Below, piece by piece: positions 3,584 through 31,560 of a stretch of 64,000 bases of DNA. Both the position numbers and the translations under genes were made by a program. The stretch is from the NCBI GenBank assembly GCA_944386385.1, contig CALXAV010000009.1, positions 3,615 through 67,614 of the forward strand. The letters run 5' to 3'. The notes beneath the pieces are model-generated. The model ran no database searches. It worked only from the letters and a program-made list of their open reading frames with translations, and was not told where the DNA came from. Every line of letters starts with the position of its first letter. The first letter of the stretch is position 1. The DNA comes from an uncultured Clostridia bacterium. Lineage in GTDB: Bacteria > Bacillota > Clostridia > TANB77 > CAG-508.

Positions 3584-4462
3584 TTAATTACGTTCTTGTT
3601 CTTCTTTATTTTTAGTCATTAATTTCTTTTTTTCATAAGCTTTTATAATAATATGTCTTAAATCTTCAGGTATTAATTCTAAAGCTTTATTTCTTAACTT
3701 TCTTGGTATTCCATAATATGCTTCTGAAATTCCACCTACCATACAAGCAATTGTATCTGTATCTCCTCCAATTGATATAGCTTTTCTTATTGAATCTTCA
3801 AAATCATTAGATTGTAAAAATATAAATATTGCTTGTGGTACAGTAACTTTACTTGTTCCATTAAAAATATTATTTTCTTGTAATTCTTCCAAATTATAAT
3901 CTAAATCATATCCATATTTTTCAGTAACATATTTTTCTATTTTGTCTTTGCTTTCTTTCTTCCTTGCTAAAAATATTGTTTCTGCAAGGCATTTCGCTCC
4001 TTTTATAGCTTGTTCACTATTATGAGAAGGTATAGTTGCTTTTTTAGCCTCTTTTTCAACCGTTTCTAAATCACCAAATAAAAATGCTACAGGTGAAATT
4101 CTCATAGCTGCTCCATTTCCTTGACTTGTACCATTTTCATTAGTTTCAGAGTTTGCCCATTTTATAAATGATGGAGAAAATGCATTTTTAAAAAACCCTT
4201 CTCTTTCTACAGGTTTACTTCCATACTTTTTTCCATATTTTTTCAAAGCTTCTTTATAGTCTCTATTATAAATTATAGCTTCTGCAATTGCTATTGTTAA
4301 AAGTGAATCATCACTAATAAAGCTTTCGTCTGTTAATAATTTAGTAGATGAATTAAGTATGCTTCTTCTTCTATTTACATTTATAACACCATTTCTTGAA
4401 TCTAAGAATTCTTGATATTCATACCTCGTTCCTGCTAAATCTCCTATTATTCCTCCTAGCAC
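3584..4462 (-). CDS. ADP-ribosylglycohydrolase family protein (DraG/ARH-like)
   Basis: N-terminal GGIIGDLAG..YE and C-terminal GGDTDTIACMVGGISEAYYG motifs typical of PF03747. Confidence 0.8.
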   Translation of the reverse strand: MLGGIIGDLAGTRYEYQEFLDSRNGVINVNRRRSILNSSTKLLTDESFISDDSLLTIAIAEAIIYNRDYKEALKKYGKKYGSKPVEREGFFKNAFSPSFIKWANSETNENGTSQGNGAAMRISPVAFLFGDLETVEKEAKKATIPSHNSEQAIKGAKCLAETIFLARKKESKDKIEKYVTEKYGYDLDYNLEELQENNIFNGTSKVTVPQAIFIFLQSNDFEDSIRKAISIGGDTDTIACMVGGISEAYYGIPRKLRNKALELIPEDLRHIIIKAYEKKKLMTKNKEEQERN

Positions 4463-8907: not shown

Positions 8908-10608
8908 TTACGCTCCTAATTTATAAATATATATATTATTAAAAGTTTTCACTCTTTCATAAGTTACATCAACATTATAGTGTTCTTTAATAAATAAAAC
9001 TATGTGTTTTATATAATTTTGATAATAGTTACCAGACCACGAAACATCTCCATCTATTAAATATACATTTTCTTTTAATAAATCTAAGAATGTACCATTT
9101 AAATCATATCTATCTTTAAAGTCATAATAATTTTGGGTATACATATCCCAACCGCCCATAACTCTTAAGTTTGAGAAAGCTCCTTCTGGTGGCATCTCAT
9201 ATACGGAATATGTTAAATATCTATATTGAAGTGCTGGTACAGTATATAAGTACACATTTTCTTTATGCGAATTTGTATATTCTATTACATCTTTATAATT
9301 ACTATAGTCTTCTAACTGATAATCAAATTTATATAATCCTCCTGCAAATATTACACTTACAACTATTACAAAGATTGACATTGCTTTTAGTGTATTTAGT
9401 TTTTCACTATCTACTTTTTCATTATATTTTGTCAAATATAGAAACATTGCTATTCCCAGAATATACTCTGGTATTACAACTCTATGCATACTCCTATTTA
9501 CTATAATAAAAATGCTATTTACTGCAATCGCTACTAAAAATATAGCTAATATATAACCTCTTTTTTCTTTATTTGTATAAAATGCAACTAAAAAACTTGC
9601 GAAAAATAATACAATAATGTAGTGATAATTGTCTCTTAATTGGTCAATTAAATCATTTACAATGTCCTTTAATTTAAAATCATAATCATAAAGTCCTCCA
9701 TTGTTCATTTTATACTCTACTATTTTCTGTAAATTTTCTTTATTAAAGACATTTTCATCTCCAAAATTAAATGTATAGAACAAATAATGATCATTTTGAG
9801 ACCAGCCTATTTCGTCAAAAAGCTCCTTATTTTCTTCATATGAAACGTAAATATTATCTTGTAAAATAGTTCTTAGTCCATTAAACTCATTATAATTTTT
9901 ATAAATTTCATTGTTATAAAACATATAATTTGAAATGTATATCAAAACAGTTATTATTCCAAACACTAAATAGTTTTTTATTATTTTTACTATTTTTTCT
10001 TTTTCTATTTTTTTTCTTATTAGTAAAATTAGTTCATACACAAAATATAATGCAAAAAACGGAGCTACTATTAACAATGATTGTATTCTTGTCATTATTC
10101 CTATTACATATAATGACAAAAAACAAACTATATATTTTTTTCCATGTTTTTTTTCTTCTATATAGTCCATCATTACAAAAAAAGCCGTTAATATTAAAAG
10201 TACTGCAACAGATGTGTATTGTATCAATTGTAATAATGATGTATAACATACACTTGCAAATATAATATATACAATATAAGAAAATTTATTTTTACTTTTA
10301 TTTACTATTAAAGTTCCCATTATAGTAAAGCATATAAATTGCATTCCAAGCAAAAATATTGTATGCCAATTTATCATAGGCAAAATTCTAAAAAACAAGC
10401 TTAATATAAAACATAAAACTGGATAGATATATACTCCATGAATATTATAAGTTCCATCTAATCCTGAATATAGATTATATATAATAAAATCATCAACTTG
10501 TTCATATTTTATATCAAATATAAGATTTACAATAGCAAATATTAAAACATTAATACCTGCAATACAAATTAACGTTTTATAGTTATTTCTTATCTTTTCT
10601 AAAAACAT
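8908..10608 (-). CDS. Large polytopic membrane protein (566 aa), possibly a glycosyltransferase-C-like enzyme
   Basis: Many TM segments followed by a soluble C-terminal domain. The family assignment is uncertain. Confidence 0.5.
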   Translation of the reverse strand: MFLEKIRNNYKTLICIAGINVLIFAIVNLIFDIKYEQVDDFIIYNLYSGLDGTYNIHGVYIYPVLCFILSLFFRILPMINWHTIFLLGMQFICFTIMGTLIVNKSKNKFSYIVYIIFASVCYTSLLQLIQYTSVAVLLILTAFFVMMDYIEEKKHGKKYIVCFLSLYVIGIMTRIQSLLIVAPFFALYFVYELILLIRKKIEKEKIVKIIKNYLVFGIITVLIYISNYMFYNNEIYKNYNEFNGLRTILQDNIYVSYEENKELFDEIGWSQNDHYLFYTFNFGDENVFNKENLQKIVEYKMNNGGLYDYDFKLKDIVNDLIDQLRDNYHYIIVLFFASFLVAFYTNKEKRGYILAIFLVAIAVNSIFIIVNRSMHRVVIPEYILGIAMFLYLTKYNEKVDSEKLNTLKAMSIFVIVVSVIFAGGLYKFDYQLEDYSNYKDVIEYTNSHKENVYLYTVPALQYRYLTYSVYEMPPEGAFSNLRVMGGWDMYTQNYYDFKDRYDLNGTFLDLLKENVYLIDGDVSWSGNYYQNYIKHIVLFIKEHYNVDVTYERVKTFNNIYIYKLGA

Positions 10609-10624
10609 TGATTTCCCTCTAATC

Positions 10625-11125
10625 CTAAATTATTGCTGATGATATATGAAATACATCACACTTATCCTTTAGCATTTTTACCGCTTCATGTATTACTTTG
10701 TGGTCATCATCTAAAAATATTGCATGGTCATACTCTTTTAGCTTTTCTTGTATTCTTTCTGCTTTTACTCTATTTCTATTTTCATTATTATAATCGCCAG
10801 CTTCTCTATTTATAATTATATAATTATCTTCATTTATAAAATCAGCATGTTTTTTTAACCATTCTTTCTTTTCTTCTACAATTATATAACTTCTTGACAT
10901 AGATAAAATATATAAATCTATATTTTCTATTTTACTTATTTTTCTTAATTCATCAATAATTACTTTTACTGGTTTATTATTTACAAATAATCCTTTTGCT
11001 TCGGTTGTCATTGTTCCCTCTGGATAAATTTTGTATTCCACTATTGTTCCATCCATATCAATAAACATTGCAACCTTTTTATACTTACTACAAATTTCCT
11101 TTACTCTATTATAAAAACTACTCAT
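10625..11125 (-). CDS. HAD-superfamily hydrolase (5'(3')-deoxyribonucleotidase-like)
   Basis: FIDMDGTIVE (DxDGT motif I) and FLDDD motif. Start moved to MSSFYN (RBS GAGAGGAG). Confidence 0.6.
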   Translation of the reverse strand: MSSFYNRVKEICSKYKKVAMFIDMDGTIVEYKIYPEGTMTTEAKGLFVNNKPVKVIIDELRKISKIENIDLYILSMSRSYIIVEEKKEWLKKHADFINEDNYIIINREAGDYNNENRNRVKAERIQEKLKEYDHAIFLDDDHKVIHEAVKMLKDKCDVFHISSAII

Positions 11126-11139
11126 CTTTTTTACTCCTC

Positions 11140-12153
11140 TCACATTCCTAAATATTCATATCCTAAATGCTTATATGCAGGTGGCAATACTTTTCTTCCT
11201 CTTAATGTTCTAGCGATAAAACCTATTTGTATTAAATAAGGCTCATAAACATCTTCTATTGTATCTATTTCTTCACCTACTGTTGCTGCTAATGCTTCTA
11301 TTCCAACTGCTCTACCACCATATTGTACAATCATTGTTTCTAATAATTTTCTGTCTATATCATCTAAACCTAATTCATCTATTTCTAATTTATTTAATGC
11401 ATGTTTTGCAATCTTTAAAGTAATATGTCCATCTCCTAAAACAATTGCATAATCTCTTACTCTTTTTAATAGTCTATTTGCAATTCTAGGTGTTCCTCTT
11501 GACCTCCTTGCAATTTCTACAGCTGCCTCCTCATCAATATTCACATTCAATATTTTACTTGACCTTTTTACTATTGTTGCTAAATCTTCTGGTGAATATA
11601 ATTCTAATCTATGTATAATTCCAAATCTATCACGAAGTGGAGTAGTAAGTGACCCTGCTTTTGTTGTTGCTCCTATAAGTGTAAATTTGGGCAAATCCAA
11701 TCTAATAGATTTACTACTTGGTCCTTTTCCAATTACTATATCTAATGTAAAATCCTCTAATGCTGGATATAATATTTCTTCTACACTTTTACTCAATCTA
11801 TGAATCTCATCTATAAATAAAACATCAAACTCAGATAAATTTGTAAGTAATGCTGCTAAATCTCCAGGTTTTTCAATAGCTGGACCTGATGTAACTTTTA
11901 AATTTGACCCCATTTCATTTGCAATAATATTAGCTAAAGTTGTTTTACCAAGACCAGGAGGTCCATATAATAAGCAATGGTCTAATGGTTCATTTCTTTT
12001 TTTAGCTGATTCAATATATATCTTCATATTTTCTTTTACTTTATCTTGTCCAATATATTCATCTAATGTCTTAGGTCTTAATGAGTTCTCAAGTCTTTCC
12101 TCTGTACTATTTTCCAGCATAGGACTAATTATTCTTTCTTCTTCCATCGCCAT
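11140..12153 (-). CDS. ruvB: Holliday junction branch migration helicase RuvB
   Basis: [43 protein letters not shown]. Confidence 0.95.
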
Positions 12154-12205
12154 TTCCTTTCTATATTCTCAATGCTGTTTTTTGACCCCGTCCTAAAAAA
12201 CAGCT

Positions 12206-14131
12206 TTATTTTAATAAATTATTTATACTGATTGAAGTTGATATAGCTAATTCTTCTTTCATATCATTATAATATTCATCTAACAATTCTTTTTCATCTT
12301 CTGGAATTTCTTCTAAGTTCACTTCTGTTCCATCAATTCTTCTAAACCATTTTTCATCATAATAATATCTACTAGTTACAATTCTTTCGTTATTTAAAGA
12401 AATAAAATCTTTTCTAGCAAACATATTTGTTCCAAGACTTACTCCTGCTTTGCCATTTATTAAATACTCAAATGTAGGTTTTATATCTAATTTATTCACT
12501 GGTTTTTCAATAGTTAAATTTTCCATACCCGGTATTTTCATGCTACCTACTACTCTTATATAATTCAATTTAATATCTACATCAGTCATATTAGGATTTA
12601 TCTGTTCTAAAAAATCTAACATTTCTTCATTATACATATCAATTCCATTATGGTCACCATATATTAAAATAATTGTATCATCATATAAATCAGCTTCTTT
12701 TAGTTCTTCTATAAATGTTCCAAAAGCATAGTCTGCATAATTAACAGATTCTAAATAATTTCCAAAGAAAGTATCTTTATATTTTCCAACATCAATACTC
12801 ACTTTACTTATATCTTCTAATCCATCTAATGTAAATCCTGTATGTGATGATGCTGATACTATAAATGAGAAAAATGGCATATTATATGTTTTCATTTTTT
12901 CTACTGCTTGTTTATATAATAATTCATCAGATAAATATCCCATTACATTTTCTGATATATCTTCAAAAGAATCTTTTAATTCTAAATAATCTACTCCAAA
13001 AGCTCTATACACATTACCTCTATTCCAAAAGTATCCATAATTTCCATGCATATATGAAGTATCATAACCTTCGTTTTTAAACATAGTAAATATGTCATCA
13101 TATTTATTTGAATAATATCTACTATATGACATACCATTTTCCATAGGATATAAAGATGTTACTGCTGAAAATTCTGAATCTGCCGTTGTTGAATAACTTT
13201 GCATAAACATATTGGAAAATTCTATGTTTTCTTCTAAAAATCTATTTAGATTTGGAGTTATTTCTTTTCCATTTATTGTTTTGTTTATTACAAATTCTTG
13301 AATTGATTCTAATTGTAAAATTATAACGTTCTTACCTTTTGCAATTCCTTCTAAATTATAATTACTTTCTCCATATCTTTCTTCATATTTATCTTTTAAT
13401 TCTTCATAATCAGAAAGTAATTCTTCTTTATTATCATATTTTGCACTTTTCTTTATATTAATTAAACTTTCAATATCTGATATATGATATCCATAAATTG
13501 TTCCCTTTTTTACTTGTGTATCTTTGTTATATGGGTCCTCCCCTGCCTTTTCCACATATTTAGCATCTACTGTAAAAAATAGAATAACAGCAGCTACTCC
13601 AGATAATACTCTTAATGTATTTATCTTCCAGTTTGCTTTATTTTTCTTTTTTATTTTCAATATTTTTGTTAATAACAATATTACAATTAAAATTATATCA
13701 ATAAAATACACTATTTGGTTGAATTCTAAAAGCATAGGAATAGTTCCCATTATTTCTTCTCCATATTGGAGATTTGTCATTTGAGCAATTGATAGTACTG
13801 AACTTGAATATATATAATACAAATTATCTGCAAAAAGCAAAATACTAAGTAATACTCCTACTATAATTGTGGCCACAGTTCTAGCTCTATTGGGTAATAC
13901 AAATAATATACATATTAACGTTATTAAAAATGCAGATGTTCCTATAATAAGATTTTTATCTATGGCTTCTCTTATTGTTATAGTATTTTCATAAAAGAAT
14001 ACTGTTTTTAGTAATAATATAATTCCAATAACTATCGGAAACCATATGGAATTAAAAAATTTATTTAATATCTCTATAATTCTTTCTTTATTTACTTTTT
14101 CTTCTTTATTTACTATTTCTTTATTTTCCAA
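12206..14131 (-). CDS. LTA synthase family protein (sulfatase-domain phosphoglycerol transferase)
   Basis: Five N-terminal TM segments plus an extracellular sulfatase domain (LQLESIQEF, GDHNG). Confidence 0.75.
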   Translation of the reverse strand: MENKEIVNKEEKVNKERIIEILNKFFNSIWFPIVIGIILLLKTVFFYENTITIREAIDKNLIIGTSAFLITLICILFVLPNRARTVATIIVGVLLSILLFADNLYYIYSSSVLSIAQMTNLQYGEEIMGTIPMLLEFNQIVYFIDIILIVILLLTKILKIKKKNKANWKINTLRVLSGVAAVILFFTVDAKYVEKAGEDPYNKDTQVKKGTIYGYHISDIESLINIKKSAKYDNKEELLSDYEELKDKYEERYGESNYNLEGIAKGKNVIILQLESIQEFVINKTINGKEITPNLNRFLEENIEFSNMFMQSYSTTADSEFSAVTSLYPMENGMSYSRYYSNKYDDIFTMFKNEGYDTSYMHGNYGYFWNRGNVYRAFGVDYLELKDSFEDISENVMGYLSDELLYKQAVEKMKTYNMPFFSFIVSASSHTGFTLDGLEDISKVSIDVGKYKDTFFGNYLESVNYADYAFGTFIEELKEADLYDDTIILIYGDHNGIDMYNEEMLDFLEQINPNMTDVDIKLNYIRVVGSMKIPGMENLTIEKPVNKLDIKPTFEYLINGKAGVSLGTNMFARKDFISLNNERIVTSRYYYDEKWFRRIDGTEVNLEEIPEDEKELLDEYYNDMKEELAISTSISINNLLK

Positions 14132-14149
14132 TTTGTTTCTTCCTTATCT

Positions 14150-14632
14150 CTATTTTATGTTATCAATAAAGTTCTCTATTATTGATAACATTTTTTTATT
14201 ATTCCCCTCATATTTCTTAGGTTCAAATTCTTTAAGCTTACAAATTGCTTCTTCCAATTCTGTCACGTCATTAATTCCTATTATATAACCTTCTTTATCA
14301 AAAGACTCTACTATTTGTTTTTGATGGTCATTTACATGTTCGCCATATTCATGAAGTCTTGGTACTGCAATTACTTTTTTTCCTTTTTTCAAAGAACCAA
14401 TTATTGAACCTACTCCTCCGTGAGTTATTATTAAATCTGCTTCATCTTGATACTTTTCTAGCTTTTCTTGTGGCATTAATCCAAATATTTCCATATTAGT
14501 TGAAGAATATTTAGTATATCCTGCCTGTACTACTACTTTTTCATTTATTACTTTCTTTTCTACTAATTTATCTATTTCTTCTAATAATCTATGGAAACTA
14601 TTATTTTGAGTTCCTAACATTACTAATATCAT
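14150..14632 (-). CDS. PssE/Cps14G-type glycosyltransferase subunit (Alg13-like, GT28 C-terminal domain)
   Basis: ITHGGVGSIIGSLKKGKKVIAVPR motif; 160 aa. Confidence 0.7.
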   Translation of the reverse strand: MILVMLGTQNNSFHRLLEEIDKLVEKKVINEKVVVQAGYTKYSSTNMEIFGLMPQEKLEKYQDEADLIITHGGVGSIIGSLKKGKKVIAVPRLHEYGEHVNDHQKQIVESFDKEGYIIGINDVTELEEAICKLKEFEPKKYEGNNKKMLSIIENFIDNIK

Positions 14633-15105
14633 TTATAAATTGAACCTCCATATACAGCCTTCGGATAAACTTTAAGCATTTCCTCCCATTGTACTATAAA
14701 TAAATCTGCTATTGGATATATTAATCTTCCTGTTGCTGTTTTCTTGTTTCTATTTGCAAATGTTTCTATATATATTACTTTACTTCCAAATATCTTTCCT
14801 AAAATGCACATTGGACCTGCTGTATGTGTCCCTGTTGTTATAATAACTTTTGGTCTTAATTTAAAATAATAATATACTGTTTTTAGACATAAATAAAAAT
14901 ATTTAAAAATATAACTAAATAATTTACTTCTCGTACCATATGGTAAAAAATCTATTTTATCTCCATATTTTTCTTTTAAAGTTTCATTTGCTTCATCTTT
15001 TTCTGTTATTATATGATAATCATATTTTTCAAATAAAGGAGATAATTGTAACATTTCACTTAAATGTCCTCCTGTACTTGATATGAATAATACTTTTTTC
15101 TTCAT
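14629..15105 (-). CDS. PssD/Cps14F-type glycosyltransferase subunit (Alg14-like)
   Basis: SSTGGHLSEM motif; overlaps the partner gene by 4 nt. Start at the ATG after AAGGTG (the track start is a GTG inside the RBS). Confidence 0.7.
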   Translation of the reverse strand: MKKKVLFISSTGGHLSEMLQLSPLFEKYDYHIITEKDEANETLKEKYGDKIDFLPYGTRSKLFSYIFKYFYLCLKTVYYYFKLRPKVIITTGTHTAGPMCILGKIFGSKVIYIETFANRNKKTATGRLIYPIADLFIVQWEEMLKVYPKAVYGGSIYK

Positions 15106-15287
15106 AGCATACACCTTACTTTTTAATATCCTTATTATATCTTTTTTTTACATTTATGTCTAGTAAAGATTTAAAATATCTTTTTCATATGTAAATAATA
15201 ATACTAAATGTGAAATCATTTTATCACCCATGTTTTAAATTATAAAAATCAAACAAGTTTTAAATCAAAAAATATTTTTACACATAG

Positions 15288-15324
15288 ATAAGCCAGCAAG
15301 CATGAAAAATACTTGCTGGCTTAT
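15288..15324 (-). terminator. Stem-loop downstream of GC-rich orphan 1
   Basis: ATAAGCCAGCAAG / CTTGCTGGCTTAT: perfect 13-bp stem, 11-nt loop, about 30 nt after the stop. Confidence 0.6.
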
Positions 15325-15356
15325 CCTAAAAAGGCTTAGTTTGAGAAGAAGCACCT

Positions 15357-15770
15357 CTACCAATCAGCCATAATATGGTTCGGCTTTTCCTTCTGTGTCC
15401 TGCGTTGCTCCTCGGCCACTTGTACTATTTCCGAGTCGCTCCAGCAAGAAACTGCACCATCGAAGAGGAAAGCATACACTGCGAAGTGATGATTCCACAA
15501 GTTATCTACTTCGTAGATGCCTTCGATTTGCACCTTCATCTCTGGGCTACCGCAAGGCCAAGCGACCTTGATTGGGCCATGCCGATAGTCGACTTCGAGC
15601 TGTAGCTCATTGCCGTCATGCCTGGACGTCTCCTTGATGCGGAATCGATTGCCCGCAAAGTGGAGGCATACAGGAATGACTCCGTCCATGGTCTTGTGGT
15701 TTGATAGAAAGATCCTCACTCCCTTCTTCTCTCGAATCGCCTTTTCAATTACTTGCATTGCCGTGGACAT
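15357..15770 (-). CDS. Orphan protein 1 (137 aa) of foreign, GC-rich composition
   Basis: ORF with SD AAGGAAGGAGG. Hand count of 15361-15420 gives 31/60 GC. No recognisable family. Confidence 0.65.
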   Translation of the reverse strand: MSTAMQVIEKAIREKKGVRIFLSNHKTMDGVIPVCLHFAGNRFRIKETSRHDGNELQLEVDYRHGPIKVAWPCGSPEMKVQIEGIYEVDNLWNHHFAVYAFLFDGAVSCWSDSEIVQVAEEQRRTQKEKPNHIMADW

Positions 15771-15787
15771 TTGTCCTCCTTCCTTGC

Positions 15788-15817
15788 AGTATAAACTGCA
15801 AACGACAAAACTGACAA
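15788..15817 (-). promoter_or_regulatory. Putative sigma-A promoter for orphan 1
   Basis: Minus strand TTGTCA, 18 nt, TATACT, about 20 nt upstream of the SD. Confidence 0.45.
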
Positions 15818-15866
15818 TGTAATTTAATTATAACATTATTTTCCATAAATTTCAATTAAATGTATA

Positions 15867-15890
15867 AAGACCACCTAATTTGGTGGTCTT
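15867..15890 (-). terminator. xerD terminator
   Basis: AAGACCACC / GGTGGTCTT stem followed by a T-rich run on the minus strand. Confidence 0.7.
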
Positions 15891-15894
15891 AATC

Positions 15895-16776
15895 CTAAGC
15901 TCTTGGATGAGCTTTTTTATAAATATCTTTTAATCCTCCATCTTGGAATTGCATATATACTTGTGTTGAAGATATATCTGAATGTCCAAGCATTGTTTGT
16001 ATTGCTTTTAAATCTGCTCCATTTTGTAAAAGATGTGTTGCAAATGAATGTCTTAGAACATGTGGTGTTATATCTTTTGTTATATGAGCTTGTTCTTTAT
16101 AATATTTGATAATTTTCCAAAATCCTTGTCTTGTTAATCTTCCTCCATTAACATTAACAAATAATGCTTTTTGATTTTCATCTTTTATTAATATATCTCT
16201 TGCATCTTCTATATATTCTTTTAACGCATTTAAAGCCATTGTTCCAAGTGGTATTGTTCTTTGTTTATTTCCATTAGTACAAGTTACATAACCTTCCTCT
16301 AAGTTTACATCATCAATATCTAACGAAATGATTTCTGTAACTCTCATACCTGTTGCATAAGCAAATTCTAACATTGCTTTATCACGAGTTCCTTTTAAAT
16401 CAACATCTTTTGGTTGGTCTAATAATAATTCAACTTCCTTTGATGTCAATACACTTGGTACTCTTTTCTCTATTTTAGGTGATTTTACATTTGCTGTTGG
16501 GTCTCTCTTTACTTTTTTTCTTTTTAGTGCAAATTGATAAAATGATCTTATTGATGCAATTGCTCTAGATATACTAGATGCTTTTTTACCATTTTCTTGT
16601 AATTCTTTTATATATAAATTAATATCATCTTCACTTACTTTATTATAATGAAGACTATATGACTCCAAAAATCTTCTAAATTGTTTTAAGTCTCTCTTAT
16701 ATGATTGCAATGTATTGTCTGATAATTTCTTTTCATTTTCTAAAAATTCGAAAAAAAGTTTTAATTGTCTCTCCAT
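15895..16776 (-). CDS. xerD: Tyrosine recombinase XerD
   Basis: LSDNTLQSYKRDL, ATGMRVTE, HVLRHSFATHLL, LGHSDISSTQVY. Lies next to spoIIM, as in Bacillus. Confidence 0.8.
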   Translation of the reverse strand: MERQLKLFFEFLENEKKLSDNTLQSYKRDLKQFRRFLESYSLHYNKVSEDDINLYIKELQENGKKASSISRAIASIRSFYQFALKRKKVKRDPTANVKSPKIEKRVPSVLTSKEVELLLDQPKDVDLKGTRDKAMLEFAYATGMRVTEIISLDIDDVNLEEGYVTCTNGNKQRTIPLGTMALNALKEYIEDARDILIKDENQKALFVNVNGGRLTRQGFWKIIKYYKEQAHITKDITPHVLRHSFATHLLQNGADLKAIQTMLGHSDISSTQVYMQFQDGGLKDIYKKAHPRA

Positions 16777-16882
16777 TCTCTATCTACCCCTAATCTTTAT
16801 TAATCTATTTACATAAACTATATATGTTATATCAAACAATTAAAAAAATGTAAATACATTTTTCTATATTTTTACATATTTT

Positions 16883-17518
16883 TTAGAAATATTTAATAAC
16901 AAGTTTCAAAATATTCGTAGAAATAAATACTTCTATTAACGAAGCCACTATCATAACTATTAGCATAATTAATGAAAAAATTGTATGTCTTACTATTTCT
17001 AATTTTATGTTTTCTTTTGCACTATTCTTTACAATTGATTTATATAATTTAAATCCACTTACTGCAATAGCTAAGATTGCTGGTATTAACAATAAACTTG
17101 GTAATAATAAATTAATTAATACAAATATTAACCCTTTAGACATCCCCATAATTGTAACACAAACTGATATAGTATATCCAAAACAAAAACCTCTATAAAT
17201 CATTATTCCAAAAACAACAGGTATTCCTATAACAGTAGTTCCAAAAAACCATATTATAAATGCAAGAATTACATTCTGCATTACACTTGTTTTTAATAAG
17301 CTAATATTATCTAAACTTTCAGTCTGTTTCATTTTTTCTATAAAGTTGTTCAAATATTCTTGTACTTCTGTTTTTTGACTATCGCCTAAATTATTTACAA
17401 AAAAGACTCCTAAAAATATTCCAATTATAAATAACAATGTTACAATTATATATTCTTTTTTATTATTTAGTATATGTTGTTTTATTGTTTTCTTAATTCT
17501 TAGACCTTTTTCCTTCAT
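16883..17518 (-). CDS. spoIIM: Stage II sporulation protein M
   Basis: 211-aa polytopic protein with SpoIIM-like topology, adjacent to xerD. Confidence 0.65.
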   Translation of the reverse strand: MKEKGLRIKKTIKQHILNNKKEYIIVTLLFIIGIFLGVFFVNNLGDSQKTEVQEYLNNFIEKMKQTESLDNISLLKTSVMQNVILAFIIWFFGTTVIGIPVVFGIMIYRGFCFGYTISVCVTIMGMSKGLIFVLINLLLPSLLLIPAILAIAVSGFKLYKSIVKNSAKENIKLEIVRHTIFSLIMLIVMIVASLIEVFISTNILKLVIKYF

Positions 17519-17579
17519 AAAAAATCTCCTTATCGTTTATACATAATGTGTATTCGATAAAGAGATTTTTAGAACTTTT

Positions 17580-18779
17580 TTATTTATTTTTTACAGAAAC
17601 TTTTCCGTAGTTTCCTCCTCCACCTGAGTGTACTTCGCAATTTCCATTTCTTGCATTTTCTATATTATTCGCAATCTTACTTCCTACAACTGCTTCTATA
17701 TCATCTTTTGATAATTTGTGTAATATATTCATCTCTGTTTCAAAAGCATCTAATAATTTTTGAACAGTTTTCCCGCCAACTCCCGGAATAAATCCTAGTG
17801 GTATTTGATAAATATAAGGTGGTCTGTTTTCTGGACTTTTTGTTTCTTTTTTATCTTTTATTAATTCTATTCTATCAAAAACTCCAAAAGTAACATTTTT
17901 CCCACCACAATAAGGACATTTATCTACAGGTTCTTTTGTTTCTATTGATTTATTACAATCATCACAATATGTCCTATGATATTTTCCAAGTTTTGGGTCT
18001 AATCCGTAGTTTGCTAAAATTTTTCTACCGTCTTCATTTTTCAAAGCTTTTACTATTTCTTTAAAAGATATATCTTCTACTTGCATTTTATTATATTCTC
18101 TTGCAATCTTTGGAAGAGAATGTGCATCTGAATTTGTTAAAAATGTTCTTGTCTCTAATTCTGATATTTCATCTGCTAAAAATGTATCTGAACTTAATCC
18201 TAATTCTACTGCAAATATTTTTTCAAATTTTTCTTTAAATACATATTCTAATCTATCTGTACAATTTCCATAATAGCTCTTATATGGTGTAAATATATGT
18301 GCTGGAACTAATATTCCATTATATCTTTCTACTATATCTATTAAATCATATCCTGATAAATCTGTCCTTTGTGTGCTTAATGTTATATTTTTTAGATGTG
18401 TACTTAATTCTTTTGAAAATCCTTTTATATCACTTAAATGCGGAAAATAACATAAATTATGTGCTGCGCCTGACTTTCCACTTCTTCCTTTTTCAGAAGT
18501 TTCTACTTCACTTCCAAGAATTATACATACTTTATCTTTATATATAATTCCGCCATCTTCTAGTTCATAAGCCTCACCCGTCTTCAAAAAATTCTCTATA
18601 TCTTCTATTACATATGGTGATGCACAATCTATAATTCCTACAACATTTATCCCTTTTCTTTCTGCACATTCTTTTGCAATGTTTGCAAAATTAAGTGACC
18701 TTGCTGCTGTTATTTTTATTGGTTTTCCACTTTCGCTTCTTCCTATGTGTACATGTAAATCTGCAAATATTTCGTACAT
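17580..18779 (-). CDS. Endonuclease Q-like PHP-domain protein (TIGR00375 family)
   Basis: ADLHVHIGRS N-terminus plus the CDDC..CPYCGG zinc motif and a C-terminal helix-hairpin-helix-like region. Confidence 0.55.
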   Translation of the reverse strand: MYEIFADLHVHIGRSESGKPIKITAARSLNFANIAKECAERKGINVVGIIDCASPYVIEDIENFLKTGEAYELEDGGIIYKDKVCIILGSEVETSEKGRSGKSGAAHNLCYFPHLSDIKGFSKELSTHLKNITLSTQRTDLSGYDLIDIVERYNGILVPAHIFTPYKSYYGNCTDRLEYVFKEKFEKIFAVELGLSSDTFLADEISELETRTFLTNSDAHSLPKIAREYNKMQVEDISFKEIVKALKNEDGRKILANYGLDPKLGKYHRTYCDDCNKSIETKEPVDKCPYCGGKNVTFGVFDRIELIKDKKETKSPENRPPYIYQIPLGFIPGVGGKTVQKLLDAFETEMNILHKLSKDDIEAVVGSKIANNIENARNGNCEVHSGGGGNYGKVSVKNK

Positions 18780-18782
18780 TTT

Positions 18783-19580
18783 CTACTCCTCTACTTTTTC
18801 TCCTACTCCTTCTCCTAAATGATTCATTATTTTCTTTGCTGTTTCTTCACTAAATAACGGTCTATTAGGATTTTCTAGATTATTAAACATCTCTTTAGAT
18901 ATTTTTTCTTTTTGTTTTTCTACTAATTTATCAATTTTTGGTTCATAACTATATACTACTTCTTTTATAAAACTAATTACATCATCTGTTTCATTATGTA
19001 TTTTTACTAATCTTTTTATAGCTGTCATATTTACTAATTCACTTACATTTATCTGTTCCATAAATTTTACAAAATCAATAAATGTTTCCATATAGCGATT
19101 ATATTTATCTTTTAAATTTCTATATTCTAAAAGTACTAATGCTTCATCTGGTTTGAATCCAATTCTTTCTGGTCTATCTAAAAGCATTCCACCAAATTGA
19201 TCAACTAATTCTAATATATCGCTTTCTCTTTCTCTTGGATTGCTATTACTATATCTATTTACTTCTTCACATATTTTGCAAAATCTTTTATTAAATCCTA
19301 TTGTAGATAAATACTCTGCGCCTCTTTTCGCATAGTTATGAATGCTTTCAATGTCTTGGGCATTGTCAATCTTTTTTACATTGCAAAGTAAGCTTGCTGT
19401 TAATACTAAGTTTGAATCAACTTCGATTTTTGAATAGTTTAAAAACAATCTCACTAATTCTGTTTTAAAAATAACAGATTTATCAAAAAATATTTTATTT
19501 CTTTTTGCTAAGTAATATACAATTTCCATTTTAGAAGCTAAATCTTTTTCTTCTAATATGTATTCTGCAAAAGTATCCAT
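18783..19580 (-). CDS. Hypothetical protein (265 aa)
   Basis: ORF. Start moved to MDTFAEY after RBS AAGGGGGA. Confidence 0.5.
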   Translation of the reverse strand: MDTFAEYILEEKDLASKMEIVYYLAKRNKIFFDKSVIFKTELVRLFLNYSKIEVDSNLVLTASLLCNVKKIDNAQDIESIHNYAKRGAEYLSTIGFNKRFCKICEEVNRYSNSNPRERESDILELVDQFGGMLLDRPERIGFKPDEALVLLEYRNLKDKYNRYMETFIDFVKFMEQINVSELVNMTAIKRLVKIHNETDDVISFIKEVVYSYEPKIDKLVEKQKEKISKEMFNNLENPNRPLFSEETAKKIMNHLGEGVGEKVEE

Positions 19581-19698
19581 ATAAATCCCCCTTAGGAAAA
19601 ATTCTCTTTCGTCCAATATCATACACTTTTATTATACTTAAATAGACAAAATATTTCAATCTTTTTTCTTAATGTAATAAAAATGTAATATTAAACAT

Positions 19699-19739
19699 AG
19701 CGAAAGCCACACAAATCCAATAATTGTGCGGCCTTCGCT
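19699..19739 (-). terminator. Stem-loop downstream of GC-rich orphan 2
   Basis: 16-bp stem. The two mismatches on the plus strand become G-U pairs in the minus-strand RNA, which supports minus-strand function. Confidence 0.55.
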
Positions 19740-19766
19740 TTCCTACTTATGATCGTTATTTCGATT

Positions 19767-20120
19767 TTAATGACAAACAGTCCTTGCCACGTACCTATCG
19801 AAATTCTTGCCTGCATATTCGATGTAACGATCATATGGTTCAGAATCTTTAAATTCTAACCCCACATGCCCATCCTTGATGCAGAACTCGTATTGCCCTT
19901 TCGGATAATAGTCCGAAATAGGTCTTGTGCTTGTAAGGAAAAACTTCTTTGCATTGACAACCTTTCCCTGATCAATCCGTACAAAAACGTGATTGAATCT
20001 TACAACAGGACATATCGCTGCAAATGGGATTCTCCCTTTTGCTCCCTTCTCAACTACCATTGTTAGATACACCGAAGAAATCGGCATATTCTGATAGTCT
20101 TCTAAAGTAGGTTTCTTCAT
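19767..20120 (-). CDS. Orphan protein 2 (118 aa) of elevated GC composition
   Basis: Start at MKKPTLEDYQ with SD AGGAGAAAA. Hand counts of 42-47% GC for 19861-19980. No recognisable family. Confidence 0.6.
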   Translation of the reverse strand: MKKPTLEDYQNMPISSVYLTMVVEKGAKGRIPFAAICPVVRFNHVFVRIDQGKVVNAKKFFLTSTRPISDYYPKGQYEFCIKDGHVGLEFKDSEPYDRYIEYAGKNFDRYVARTVCH

Positions 20121-20212
20121 TTTTCTCCTAAAACACTCGTTTCCAATAAAGCCTATATTAACCTGCAAAAACAGGAGAACAGAATTATATGCTATTTTTT
20201 TAGCATAACTAT

Positions 20213-20241
20213 ATTATATCACACTTTTTATAGAATTCCAA
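20213..20241 (-). promoter_or_regulatory. Putative sigma-A promoter for orphan 2
   Basis: TTGGAA, 17 nt, TATAAT, with an upstream TG (TGATATAAT). Confidence 0.55.
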
Positions 20242-20251
20242 GTTATGTAGA

Positions 20252-20695
20252 TTATAATTCTTTTATTGCATTTCTTGCCAGCTCATCACATCTATTATTT
20301 AATTCGTTATCACTATGTCCTTTTACTTTTATAAAGTTAACTTTATGTATTTTTGTTAGATTATATAGCTCTTCCCATATTTCTTTATTTTTTACAGGTT
20401 CTTTTGATGCTGTTTTCCAATTATTTTTTACCCAATTATATATCCACCCTTGTGTAAAACAATTCACTATATATGCACTATCACTATGTAAATCAACTTC
20501 ACAAGGATACTTTAGTATCTTTAAAGCCTCTACAACTGCTATTAACTCCATTACATTATTTGTTGTATCTCTTTTCCCTCCTGATATTTCTTTTCTATTC
20601 TTATTATAAATTAATACTGCTGCCCAACCTCCTGGTCCTGGATTCCCAGAGCAAGCTCCGTCTGTATATATTGTCACTTTTTCCATATTATTCAT
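20252..20695 (-). CDS. rnhA: Ribonuclease HI
   Basis: [39 protein letters not shown]. Confidence 0.9.
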
Positions 20696-20773
20696 ACCTT
20701 TCCATTGTTTTTTTCTCCATTTTATGGTAATATTATAACAGTAATTATAAAAATATACAAGGAAGGAATTAGC

Positions 20774-22006
20774 ATGGGAAAAGTTTTAGGTATCGTATGT
20801 GAATATAACCCATTTCATAATGGCCATTTGTATCATTTAGAGCAATCTAAAAAAGCAACTGGCTCTAATTATGTTGTGGCAATTATGAGTGGGAATTTTA
20901 CCCAGCGTGGTAGTACTGCTATTATTGATAAATGGTCAAGAACAGAGGCTGCTCTTAAATGTGGTGTTGATTTAGTAATAGAACTTCCTGTTCTATATGC
21001 TACATCTAGTGCTGAAAATTTTGCATATGGCGCTATTCATATTTTAGACTCACTTAAAATTGTAGATTATCTTGGATTTGGTAGTGAAACTTCTGACATT
21101 GAAGCATTAAGTAATATCGCAGATATATTACATAAAGAGCCTAAAGTTTATAAAAATATTTTAGCAGATGAATTAAAAAAGGGCGATTCTTTTCCTAAAG
21201 CAAGAGAGAATGCTTTATTAACATATTTAGGTAATGATAAAAGATATGCCAATGTTCTTTCTTCTCCTAACAATATTTTAGGAATTGAATATATAAAGGC
21301 TTTAAAAAAATATAAAAGTAATATCACTCCTATTTCTATTACAAGGTTTGAAGCAGGTTATAATGATTTAAATTATTCTGGAAATATTGCAAGTGCTACT
21401 GCTATTAGAAATATTATTAAAAATGGTAACTTTGATATTGCTAGAAGATTACTTCCACCACCTAGCTATGGTATTTTAATGGATAATATTAAACAAGGTC
21501 ATATAATTCCTGATTTGTCTGTTTTTGAAAGACAAATTATTTATAATTTAAGAAAAATGTCAACAGAAGAAATTGCTGAACTTCCAGATGTAACAGAAGG
21601 ATTAGAATTTTCTATAAAAAAAGTAGCAAATTCATGTAATACTATTCATGAGTTTTTAACACTTATAAAATCTAAGAGGTACACTTCTACTAGATTACAA
21701 AGGATTTTATTATATTCTTTACTTGGTATTACAAAAAAAGATATAGCTTTATCTAAAAAAGTTAATCCTTATGTTAGAGTTTTAGGTTTAAATAACAGAG
21801 GAAAATTTATAATATCAGAAATTGCAAAGGCAAATCCAAGACTTGAAATAATTACTTCTGTTAAGCGTTTTACTGACAAATCTACTAATAAGAATTTAAA
21901 ACTTATGCTTGATAAAGATATCTTCGCAACTAATGTATATACTATTGGTTATGATTTCAATTCTTGTAATAACTTAGACTTTACTAAAAAAATTGTTACA
22001 ATATAA
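20774..22006 (+). CDS. tmcAL: tRNA(Met) cytidine acetate ligase TmcAL (YlbM/UPF0348)
   Basis: [23 protein letters not shown]-terminus. Start at 20774 after RBS AAGGAAGG. Confidence 0.8.
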
Positions 22007-22046: not shown

Positions 22047-22084
22047 AACATTTAAACAAAAAAAGATACTTTTAAGTATCTTTT

Positions 22085-22395
22085 TGGTGGGCAGGGAAGG
22101 ATTCGAACCTTCGTACTCAAATGAGAACAGATTTCTTACTACTATAGTTTTCACTACCAATTTCTTGTTTGTAGTCTGGACTTTCTCTTTATCTTAAAAT
22201 TAAGATACTAGGTATAAAGTCTCTACACTCGGAAATTTCTTTCCTAGCTCGGGATTGCCATCAGCCTTACCTGTTAAGGATTCCCCGAATTAGCCTAGTT
22301 ATCATCATACAATCACTTGTATGAGCTGCAAATTTAGGTTTTGGAATAAACCAAAGACTACAGTCTGCCGCCTTTAGCCACTCGGCCACCTACCC
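22085..22395 (-). tRNA. tRNA-Tyr(GUA), class II, interrupted by an intron in the anticodon loop
   Basis: 5' exon GGGTAGGTGGCCGAGTGGCTAAAGGCGGCAGACTGT (22395-22360) plus 3' exon AAATCTGTTCTCATTTGAGTACGAAGGTTCGAATCCTTCCCTGCCCACCA (22134-22085) fold into an 86-nt cloverleaf with loop CTGTAAA, a long variable arm and an encoded CCA. Confidence 0.85.
22135..22359 (-). ncRNA. Group I intron (IC3-like) within tRNA-Tyr
   Basis: Core blocks AAACCTAAATTTGCAG, GATGGCAATCCCGAGCTAGG, GTGTAGAGACTTTATACC and AAAGAGAAAGTCCAGACTAC parallel the Anabaena tRNA-Leu and Azoarcus tRNA-Ile introns. U precedes the 5' splice site and the intron ends in G. Confidence 0.75.
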
Positions 22396-22407
22396 TTATA
22401 TAAAAAA

Positions 22408-22484
22408 TGGTGCTCCCTCAAGGATTCGAACCTTGGACCCACTGGTTATGAGCCAGTTGCTCTGACCAACTGAGCTAAGGGAGC
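22408..22484 (-). tRNA. tRNA with anticodon CAU (elongator Met or lysidine-modified Ile2; not an initiator)
   Basis: GCTCCCTTAGCTCAGTTGGTCAGAGCAACTGGCTCATAACCAGTGGGTCCAAGGTTCGAATCCTTGAGGGAGCACCA. Full cloverleaf, G1-C72 pair, encoded CCA. Confidence 0.9.
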
Positions 22485-31239: not shown

Positions 31240-31560
31240 TCACATTCCCATCTGGAGTCTTCTAAGCTCTCCTCGAACACTCTCCTCCTTATTTTGCAGT
31301 TCACGCCTCATGGGGTTGATCATCTCGGCAACGAAGAGCTCATCGCCGTTGGAAAGAGCTTGTCGCTCCATCTCGCCCAAGACCCTCTTGTTGTAGTCAG
31401 AAAAATCCTTAAGAGCGTTCAAACACTCTACAATCTCCCGACTAATGTCGCGCCTTGAACGAGCCTTGCTCTGAGCCATGTGTAGAGCTAAGTCTACTTT
31501 CTTCTCTAGCTCCATTCCAGTTGCAACAATACTGGAAAACTCATTGGTTGTCATTGACAT
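31240..31560 (-). CDS. Orphan protein 3 (106 aa, predicted all-helical) of foreign, GC-rich composition
   Basis: SD GGAGGGAAG. Hand counts of 48% and 57% GC for 31261-31380. No recognisable family. Confidence 0.65.
   Translation of the reverse strand: MSMTTNEFSSIVATGMELEKKVDLALHMAQSKARSRRDISREIVECLNALKDFSDYNKRVLGEMERQALSNGDELFVAEMINPMRRELQNKEESVRGELRRLQMGM

Follow-up and report, generated by a model that had tools for sequence, protein, structure and literature searches.

The subject of this report is a small gene in an uncultured Clostridia bacterium. It lies at 15357..15770, on the minus strand, of a 64,000-nucleotide stretch (positions 3,615 to 67,614 of contig CALXAV010000009.1, assembly GCA_944386385.1), which we call the window. 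The gene starts with ATG, encodes 137 aa and stands, with a promoter, leader and terminator of its own, between xerD and a pair of glycosyltransferase genes. The explanation that we favour, with somewhat more confidence than doubt, is that the gene is one allele of a family of autonomous cassettes, that the alleles are exchanged by recombination, that the product is a specificity protein used in conflict, and that its high GC (guanine plus cytosine) content is held up in place. Between close species, and between genera, deeply divergent alleles take the place of the whole coding body, with its regulatory chassis and the neighbouring core genes conserved; on the favoured explanation the exchange would occur by recombination in a region that is mosaic between strains. 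Diversifying or frequency-dependent selection would keep the allele diversity. The product is most likely an abundant specificity or binder protein in microbial conflict, e.g., an immunity- or inhibitor-like factor that counters a toxin, a phage or a mobile element. The high GC would not be a leftover of import but would come from recombination-linked GC-biased conversion or from selection.

The case for exchange begins with close relatives. In sister species whose XerD is 94-97% identical to that of the window, the family protein is only 25-35% identical, and between genomes G111 and G344 the XerD proteins are 99.7% identical and the family proteins 36.9%. When DNA identity to five sister species was measured by segment, it was 86-98% in the flanking genes, 76-88% in the leader, 35-54% in the coding sequence (CDS) and 84-100% beyond the terminator; segment identities were measured in other species pairs too. 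At least five deep allele lineages occupy the slot behind xerD. In the family tree the window allele and a variant 85% identical to it form a lineage of their own, outside a well-supported clade of nine members that fills the same slot in sister species; by path length the nearest alleles are those of genus g25 and those on short array-bearing contigs (L076/L077), with the limit that deep branching among the allele lineages is weakly supported. Strains of the species are mosaic in this region: when L002 and L003 were compared with window positions 9357-21770, stretches with 0% divergence took turns with stretches at 8-17%, and an identical block of 1,187 nt surrounds the cassette, with breakpoints ~400 nt to each side. 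These sequence comparisons lead us to infer that whole alleles were replaced through recombination and did not diverge where they stand.

Within its own lineage the gene behaves differently. A strain with flanks 93-97% identical to those of the window holds the 85% identical allele in the same place. For codons 2-110 the two alleles differ with a synonymous divergence (dS) of 0.339 and a non-synonymous divergence (dN) of 0.024, i.e., a dN/dS of 0.07; for the 27-codon tail dN/dS is 0.92. In the same strain pair dS is 0.17-0.34 for the flanking spoIIM, xerD, alg14 and second glycosyltransferase genes. The start codon of the 85% allele is GTG instead of ATG, and the Shine-Dalgarno (SD) sequence is unchanged. 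The ORF (open reading frame) is a real protein gene, as shown by the low dN/dS of codons 2-110, the kept SD and a structure prediction, described below, that becomes confident once relatives are aligned. Since the two strains split, the cassette has evolved as an ordinary constrained gene, with no hypermutation.

The second part of the explanation concerns base composition. The CDS has a GC content of 0.50 (50%) and a third-position GC (GC3) of 0.60, in a host assembly of 1.98 Mb and 61 contigs that has 27.7% GC overall and a mean GC3 of 0.136 (674 ORFs of at least 300 aa). Across 300-nt windows GC rises from 0.19-0.27 to 0.48-0.53 and returns within ~200 nt on either side, so that the abrupt composition switch on both sides described in an earlier note, made from the letters of this DNA alone, is confirmed. 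Because the same cassette junctions recur in the 23 contigs read, from independent metagenome assemblies, the cassette is not an assembly artefact or chimera. Family CDSs range from 28 to 54% GC and from 0.22 to 0.72 GC3, in hosts of 25-33% GC. Base changes were polarised by parsimony, with distant outgroups and small numbers and with the proviso that parallel decay can mimic GC gain; they came to 6 GC-to-AT and 8 AT-to-GC changes on the terminal branches of the window and 85% alleles, 10 and 18 on the branch leading to the pair, and 12 and 34 in the allele of G182 (GC3 0.52) since its split from that of G217 (GC3 0.40). In G182 the changes are distributed evenly over the CDS and are both synonymous and non-synonymous; at third codon positions they number 1 GC-to-AT versus 16 AT-to-GC. 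A lower-GC allele lineage shows the reverse, 21 GC-to-AT versus 11 AT-to-GC. For a decaying import a ratio of ~6:1 in favour of GC-to-AT would be expected, a rough figure taken from the host's equilibrium GC3. Decay of an import is disfavoured because GC-to-AT changes are not in excess, and, within the outgroup and count caveats, the GC content of the cassette would seem to have been kept up or raised in place. Selection is one candidate cause; the other is GC-biased conversion tied to frequent recombination, a process proposed for bacteria by Lassalle et al. 2015 (PMC4450053).

The third line of evidence is the conservation of the signals around the CDS, all of them on the minus strand. The promoter, TTGAAA-17-TGTTATAAT, is of the sigma-A type, close to consensus, and spans 15855-15827. 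Its -35 hexamer TTGAAA is at 15850..15855 and its extended -10 element TGTTATAAT at 15827..15835; TTGAAA-17-TATAAT matches the consensus at 11 of 12 positions and carries the TG extension. Relatives also have a TTGAAA-like -35 at 17 nt, and TGnTATAAT is kept in most family members, in three genera, some locus-B copies having TATTATAAT and one TGATAAAAT. The earlier note had placed the promoter at TTGTCA-18-TATACT. That sequence is present (10/12) but lies within the transcribed leader, and the call was wrong because both hexamers overlap leader helices: TTGTCA overlaps the 5' arm of helix P1, and TATACT covers the loop of hairpin P2 and the start of its 3' arm.

The leader, ~50 nt at 15771..15820 with an inferred transcription start site, is predicted to fold into a domain of three helices. 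In helix P1 the leader's 5' end (CAUUGUC, 15813-15819) is paired with codons 3-5 (GGCAAUG, 15756..15762), which closes the domain with the SD and the AUG inside it; UUGUCG at 15803-15808, taken as the 5' arm instead, scores similarly. P2, at 15784-15801, is a hairpin of 6-8 bp directly 5' of the SD (AAGGAAGGAGG, 15775-15785), and its pairing is kept by CG to UA changes in five sequences and GC to AU changes in four. The P1 arms change together as well, to UUUUCGC and GCGAAAA in L072, to UGCCGA and UCGGCA in G594 and to UGCCAA and UUGGCA in G550. In a 17-sequence alignment 84% of the structure is paired, versus 30-45% when it is slid along the alignment, and the covariation score was reached by none of 500 shuffles; folded as a single sequence, the window leader gave -21.4 kcal/mol with a z of -2.2. 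Several parts are kept across alleles and genera, viz., the leader motif CAUUGUC..UUGUCG, the SD with its spacer (AGGAAGGAGGACAA), the first five codons (AUG UCC ACG GCA AUG) and a motif in the 3' untranslated region (UTR), UAAGCCUUUU. An Rfam covariance-model scan gave chance-level matches, none of them on the leader. By these comparisons the leader is an undescribed, covarying RNA predicted to enclose the ribosome-binding site, and its 5'-terminal helix would stabilise the mRNA, gate translation, or both. The idea that this chassis is common to other cassettes was rejected: no more than a loose likeness to the SD-ATG motif was found, at two unrelated genes.

Downstream of the stop codon (TAG, 15357..15359) the 3'-UTR motif CUAAGCCUUUUUAGG is found at 15325..15339; in most cassettes of the MSTAM clade TAAGCC(Y)TTTT stands just upstream of the terminator. 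The terminator-like hairpin at 15288..15324 has the perfect 13-bp stem that had been reported for it (15288-15300 paired with 15312-15324), with a core, CCAGCAAG/CUUGCUGG, common to the family. Relatives keep the stem through compensatory changes, e.g., AAGCC/GGCTT versus AGACC/GGTCT. The U-tract is weak in the window copy, where a simple terminator scan made no call. From promoter to terminator the cassette is an autonomous expression unit, and its signals predict strong expression. The earlier picture, in which one gene of deviant composition forms a compact and self-contained cassette amid core genes, is supported, and the ORF, its ~50% GC composition, its neighbours, the SD and the hairpin are all where the note had put them.

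That note had also called the gene an orphan and, by implication, foreign. The deviant cassette stood up to analysis; orphan status and a fresh import from a GC-rich donor did not. With a word-indexed search nothing came up beyond the gene and its 85% allele. When the remote-homology check that had been proposed was run, exhaustive HMMER searching of 1.84 billion representative proteins gave 12 small full-length relatives (101-164 aa, 31-50% identity), and together with profile searches of genomes it brought the family to ~30 small proteins. The synteny check of the xerD interval likewise placed family members, with other alleles, in the same slot in relatives. The note had named a syntenic homologue of known housekeeping function as what would tell against it; the homologues are indeed syntenic behind xerD, but a known or housekeeping function was found in none. 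No homologue from a GC-rich organism was found among the 1.84 billion representatives, and every relative with a readable locus belongs to an AT-rich genome. With the family profile, members were detected in 13 of the 338 species of the genus; a family-level taxonomic sample of 401 genomes had them in 7, covering at least two further genera. Searches with single sequences saw less: the gene was not found in 36 sampled congeners, and a locus search with single proteins gave no confirmed match in genome or viral contigs, nor did alignment A6 in metagenome contigs.

The cassettes occupy a few chromosomal slots. In the window's subclade the family gene is directly downstream of xerD and co-directional with it, and is followed by the glycosyltransferase pair or by a glycogen phosphorylase gene. 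Most relatives occupy this slot, which in one species holds a tandem pair of family genes. A subfamily of 106-111 aa lies between phosphoglucomutase-like (pgm) and ttcA-like genes. In genus g25, which has the closest outside relative (44%), the gene is between aspS and gatCAB. In genus g23 three tandem copies (L091, G594:C1:846856-848270) lie beside an IS-like (insertion sequence-like) transposase gene and not beside xerD. Their CDSs have 50%, 39% and 54% GC, with GC3 up to 0.72, in a genome of 27.6% GC, and their leader hairpins covary, with GUGAC, GUGGC and GUAGC stems. Further tandem arrays are found on short contigs, and arrays hold two or three copies. Many congeners have empty sites, in which xerD leads straight to alg14 with 145-270 bp between them; xerD itself is a conserved core gene beside spoIIM in 39 of 41 genomes searched, cassette or none. 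In two loci of other species, L043 (G036) and L021 (G034), the slot holds unrelated small ORFs, one of 102 aa and 43% GC on the opposite strand, the other of 121 aa and 30% GC with a membrane segment and an acidic tail; the xerD slot seems to take various small genes. In another genus, L086 (G434:C25:55897-56088) matches the family weakly (E 3.3e-4), contains six in-frame stops and may be a decayed cassette.

The protein is predicted to be small and cytoplasmic, with an alpha/beta domain of ~110 residues and a disordered tail; no signal peptide was seen on reading its sequence. The structure prediction proposed in the earlier note was made with AlphaFold2 (AF2). With two sequences the mean predicted local distance difference test score (pLDDT) was 36, which is unusable. 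With 15 sequences aligned the mean was 77.6; residues 1-110 were mostly at 75-92 (~88) and the tail was below 50. The folded domain, codons 1-110 (15441..15770), consists of a helix at residues 4-13 followed by six strands. The tail, codons 111-137 (15360..15440), evolves fast and ends in H-I-M-A-D/E-W, and a C-terminal -EW is common to most MSTAM-clade alleles. Conserved residues are P33, T48, H51, E55 and Y99-A100-F101, and the isoelectric point (pI) runs from 4.4 to 9.8 across alleles. That the protein has no recognisable motif, as first noticed, holds after searches of Pfam, NCBIfam, PADLOC, PHROGs and PDB sequences, all of them empty. The Pfam and NCBIfam scans were made with 14 family members and accompanied by a PDB sequence profile search; no family in the PADLOC-DB 2.0 hidden Markov models of defence systems matched at E ≤1, and Foldseek gave no match in PDB (best E 0.72, template modelling score ≤0.2) or in BFVD. 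The cassette protein and its relatives make up a new protein family, with a candidate new fold. Two assignments were tried and dropped. Long RCC1 matches (PF00415 / PF13540) proved to be summed weak matches to residues 77-122; Pfam RCC1 has no match to the protein at E up to 1, and most family members lack the DG-x-V-x-x-W stretch, which argues against an RCC1 repeat protein. An Sm/Hfq-like fold, in which an N-terminal helix precedes a bent beta-sheet of five strands, is unsupported by the fold search.

Four other explanations must be weighed against exchange of conflict-related alleles, and none of them strikes us as probable. The least probable is a one-off, recent import of an orphan from a donor of ~50% GC, now slowly ameliorating. 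Such an import would account for the abrupt composition boundaries and for the gene's absence from the 36 sampled congeners in the single-sequence search, and empty xerD-alg14 sites do exist; there are, moreover, several dozen other GC-elevated ORFs in the genome, some metabolic-looking. But the homologues in relatives are syntenic and share the promoter, leader and terminator, no relative from a GC-rich genome was found among the 1.84 billion representatives, and the allele dS equals the flank dS, as in co-divergence. There is no excess of GC-to-AT changes, and GC3 is still 0.56-0.60 after a dS of 0.34, where neutral decay would, on a rough estimate, give ~0.4. Slightly less improbable, yet still poorly placed, is a phage moron or mobile-element remnant, left or delivered by phages of the genus. 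There are no phage genes nearby, INPHARED, PLSDB, IMG/VR and PHROGs gave no match, and the same core-gene slot is used across species, all of which tell against a moron in spite of the autonomous architecture, the deviant composition, the patchy distribution over multiple loci and the one array beside an IS-like transposase gene.

We rate about as low the idea that a resident regulator or RNA-binding protein evolves fast and controls its own synthesis through its structured leader, its divergence reflecting relaxed constraint and not conflict. The conserved leader does enclose the SD and AUG, the N-terminal helix followed by beta-strands resembles Sm-like proteins, one member has a weak match to Pfam Hfq_1 (E 0.15), and there is purifying selection within the lineage. 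A regulator fits badly, though, with pI values of 4.4-9.8 across alleles, with alleles that are replaced and not gradually diverged, and with the lack of the gene in most species of the genus. A little more room, although not much, is left for integron- or rAID-like capture, i.e., site-specific recombination at the conserved hairpin or UTR, perhaps by the adjacent XerD-family recombinase, that builds arrays of orphan immunity genes. In its favour the cassette is co-directional with, and immediately 3' of, a XerD-family recombinase gene, cassettes occur at several unrelated loci, and skewed composition, conserved intergenic sequences and tandem arrays are hallmarks of rAID-1 (bioRxiv 10.1101/471110). 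The xerD gene is nevertheless a core gene in 39 of 41 genomes, with or without a cassette; the g23 arrays and the pgm and aspS copies are away from xerD; every cassette carries a promoter, which integron cassettes do not; the stems are perfect and in many copies are followed by T-runs, as terminators are; and there is no homology to known immunity families. Nor is there a dif-like site at the cassette borders: with the B. subtilis dif as query, no match within 6 mismatches was found in the assembly, and no half-site at the borders.

Exchange of alleles of a conflict-related specificity protein remains our best guess, and several results weigh against it. The cassette has no flanking repeats or recombinase sites that we could find; the sole direct repeat flanking it is an 11-nt AT-rich one (15174 / 15921), put down to chance. 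No copy was found by tblastn against INPHARED phages and PLSDB plasmids or in IMG/VR, the sole plasmid match being to Caballeronia at E 0.7. PHROGs and the Pfam immunity families gave no match, there is no adjacent toxin, defence or phage gene, and the genome has no WXG100 or LXG genes, which are markers of type VII secretion systems (T7SS). The invariant T48, H51, E55 and Y99 could indicate an enzyme or ligand site and not a binder. As for the GC content, the caveats on the polarised counts given above apply, and we know of no demonstration of GC-biased conversion of such strength in bacteria.

If the explanation by exchange is correct, the cassette offers a tractable case of whole-allele swap of a small cytoplasmic protein between near-identical genomes. 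Whole-allele replacement usually marks genes engaged in conflict with phages, mobile elements or competitors, and here it would be found in functionally little-known uncultured gut Clostridia. A coding sequence at a GC3 of ~0.6, or gaining GC, in a genome with a GC3 of 0.14 would be an evolutionary puzzle, and recombination-driven GC-biased conversion in bacteria could become directly testable. A broader and distinctly tentative proposal, which we consider unlikely as it stands, is that AT-rich gut Clostridia carry a class of promoter-to-terminator cassettes that encode small proteins of new folds, are swapped across species and genera, use few slots (among them arrays behind a XerD-type recombinase) and have their GC driven up against the mutational bias by selection or by recombination-linked GC-biased conversion; in function they would form a Gram-positive, integron- or rAID-like conflict repertoire. 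The literature searched holds no description of GC-rich hypervariable cassettes.

The surroundings of the cassette are as follows. On one flank is xerD (15895-16776), whose own terminator hairpin at 15864..15893 (minus strand) forms the upstream boundary of the slot; on the other is the Alg14/Alg13-like glycosyltransferase pair (14150-15114). The neighbourhood as a whole comprises spoIIM, xerD, glycosyltransferase, ltaS and ruvB genes. An AT-rich, strain-variable spacer of ~85-95 nt (15190..15285, minus strand), outside the conserved cassette, separates the cassette's terminator from the promoter of alg14; it holds a 25-nt tandem repeat (15223-15272, 80% identical) and is missing in the strain with the 85% allele. 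The interval from the hairpin to the alg14 start (15115-15287) was considered as a relic of a second cassette promoter and leader and rejected, local alignment scores being 27-34 versus a shuffle mean of 31. At 22080-22480 the window has two minus-strand tRNA genes, one of them interrupted by a long insert. The host's relatives are metagenome-assembled genomes of uncultured gut Clostridia from many animals and humans, the named ones including Clostridium sp. CAG:440 and CAG:575.

The window has two other GC-elevated single-gene cassettes, both on the minus strand, at 19767-20120 (117 aa) and 31240-31560 (106 aa). In sister species with XerD at 94-97% identity their proteins are 55-62% and 45-70% identical, respectively, so both diverge fast, and both are patchy: a search of 5 genomes, not all of them complete, failed to find them in 2-3. 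The 27.7% GC genome is dotted with several dozen ORFs that reach 40% GC or more (e.g., C2:84314-85093, C25:3236-4639, C6:81906-83462, C26:980-1876 and C3:98655-99524); some look, on inspection by eye, like purC, purB and malQ, and two are small paralogous ORFs in tandem. One ORF of 159 aa and 45% GC (C31:9020-9499) is preceded by a TGTTATAAT promoter, a long leader and the SD GGGAGGACAA and followed by a GC-rich terminator of 15 bp; it resembles the cassette in build, and its leader and protein are unrelated.

Among known systems, the rAID-1 clusters of Bacteroidales (recombinase-associated acquired interbacterial defence; Ross et al., bioRxiv 10.1101/471110) are defined by a dedicated XerD-like recombinase, at least 44% identical to BF9343_RS08045, and two or more co-directional genes of low GC behind it. 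Like the cassette, they have a XerD-family tyrosine recombinase on the 5' side, small co-directional genes of skewed GC, conserved repetitive intergenic sequence, arrays and horizontally exchanged content. They differ in that xerD belongs here to the chromosomal core and some cassettes lie elsewhere; in that there are one to three cassettes and not up to 31, with usually one gene behind the recombinase; in that GC is skewed towards higher values, in a Gram-positive genome rich in AT; in that each cassette has its own promoter and terminator; and in that neither homology to known immunity genes (Pfam, NCBIfam and PADLOC with 14 members) nor a type VI secretion system (T6SS) or T7SS context was found. 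The leader, for its part, recalls those of aprE, hbs and ermC in B. subtilis. These are 5'-terminal stem-loop stabilisers of mRNA or leaders that enclose the ribosome-binding site, and they and the cassette alike have a helix near the inferred transcript start followed by a very strong SD; unlike theirs, the closing helix of the cassette pairs the leader with codons 3-5 and shows compensatory changes across three genera.

Integron cassettes consist of a promoterless ORF with an attC site, an imperfect inverted repeat with extrahelical bases and R and L boxes, and are inserted at attI next to a divergent intI. Here, instead, each cassette has a near-consensus promoter, the 13-bp stem is perfect, and xerD is a co-directional core gene. 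Prophage morons are autonomous promoter-gene-terminator units of atypical composition, and the cassette is likewise a self-contained unit of deviant composition, patchy in distribution and set between unrelated genes. The cassette is, however, outside any prophage, no phage copy of it was found, and the same slot is reused with deeply divergent alleles. At replacement-type hypervariable loci, such as the central regions of flagellin genes and the capsule and O-antigen loci, conserved sequence flanks a variable centre. With these the cassette shares conserved flanks around an unalignable centre, an allele tree decoupled from the species tree, and mosaic strains. What sets it apart is that its product is predicted to be a small cytoplasmic protein and not a surface antigen, that promoter, leader and terminator of the gene itself make up the conserved flanks, and that the cassette is enriched in GC.

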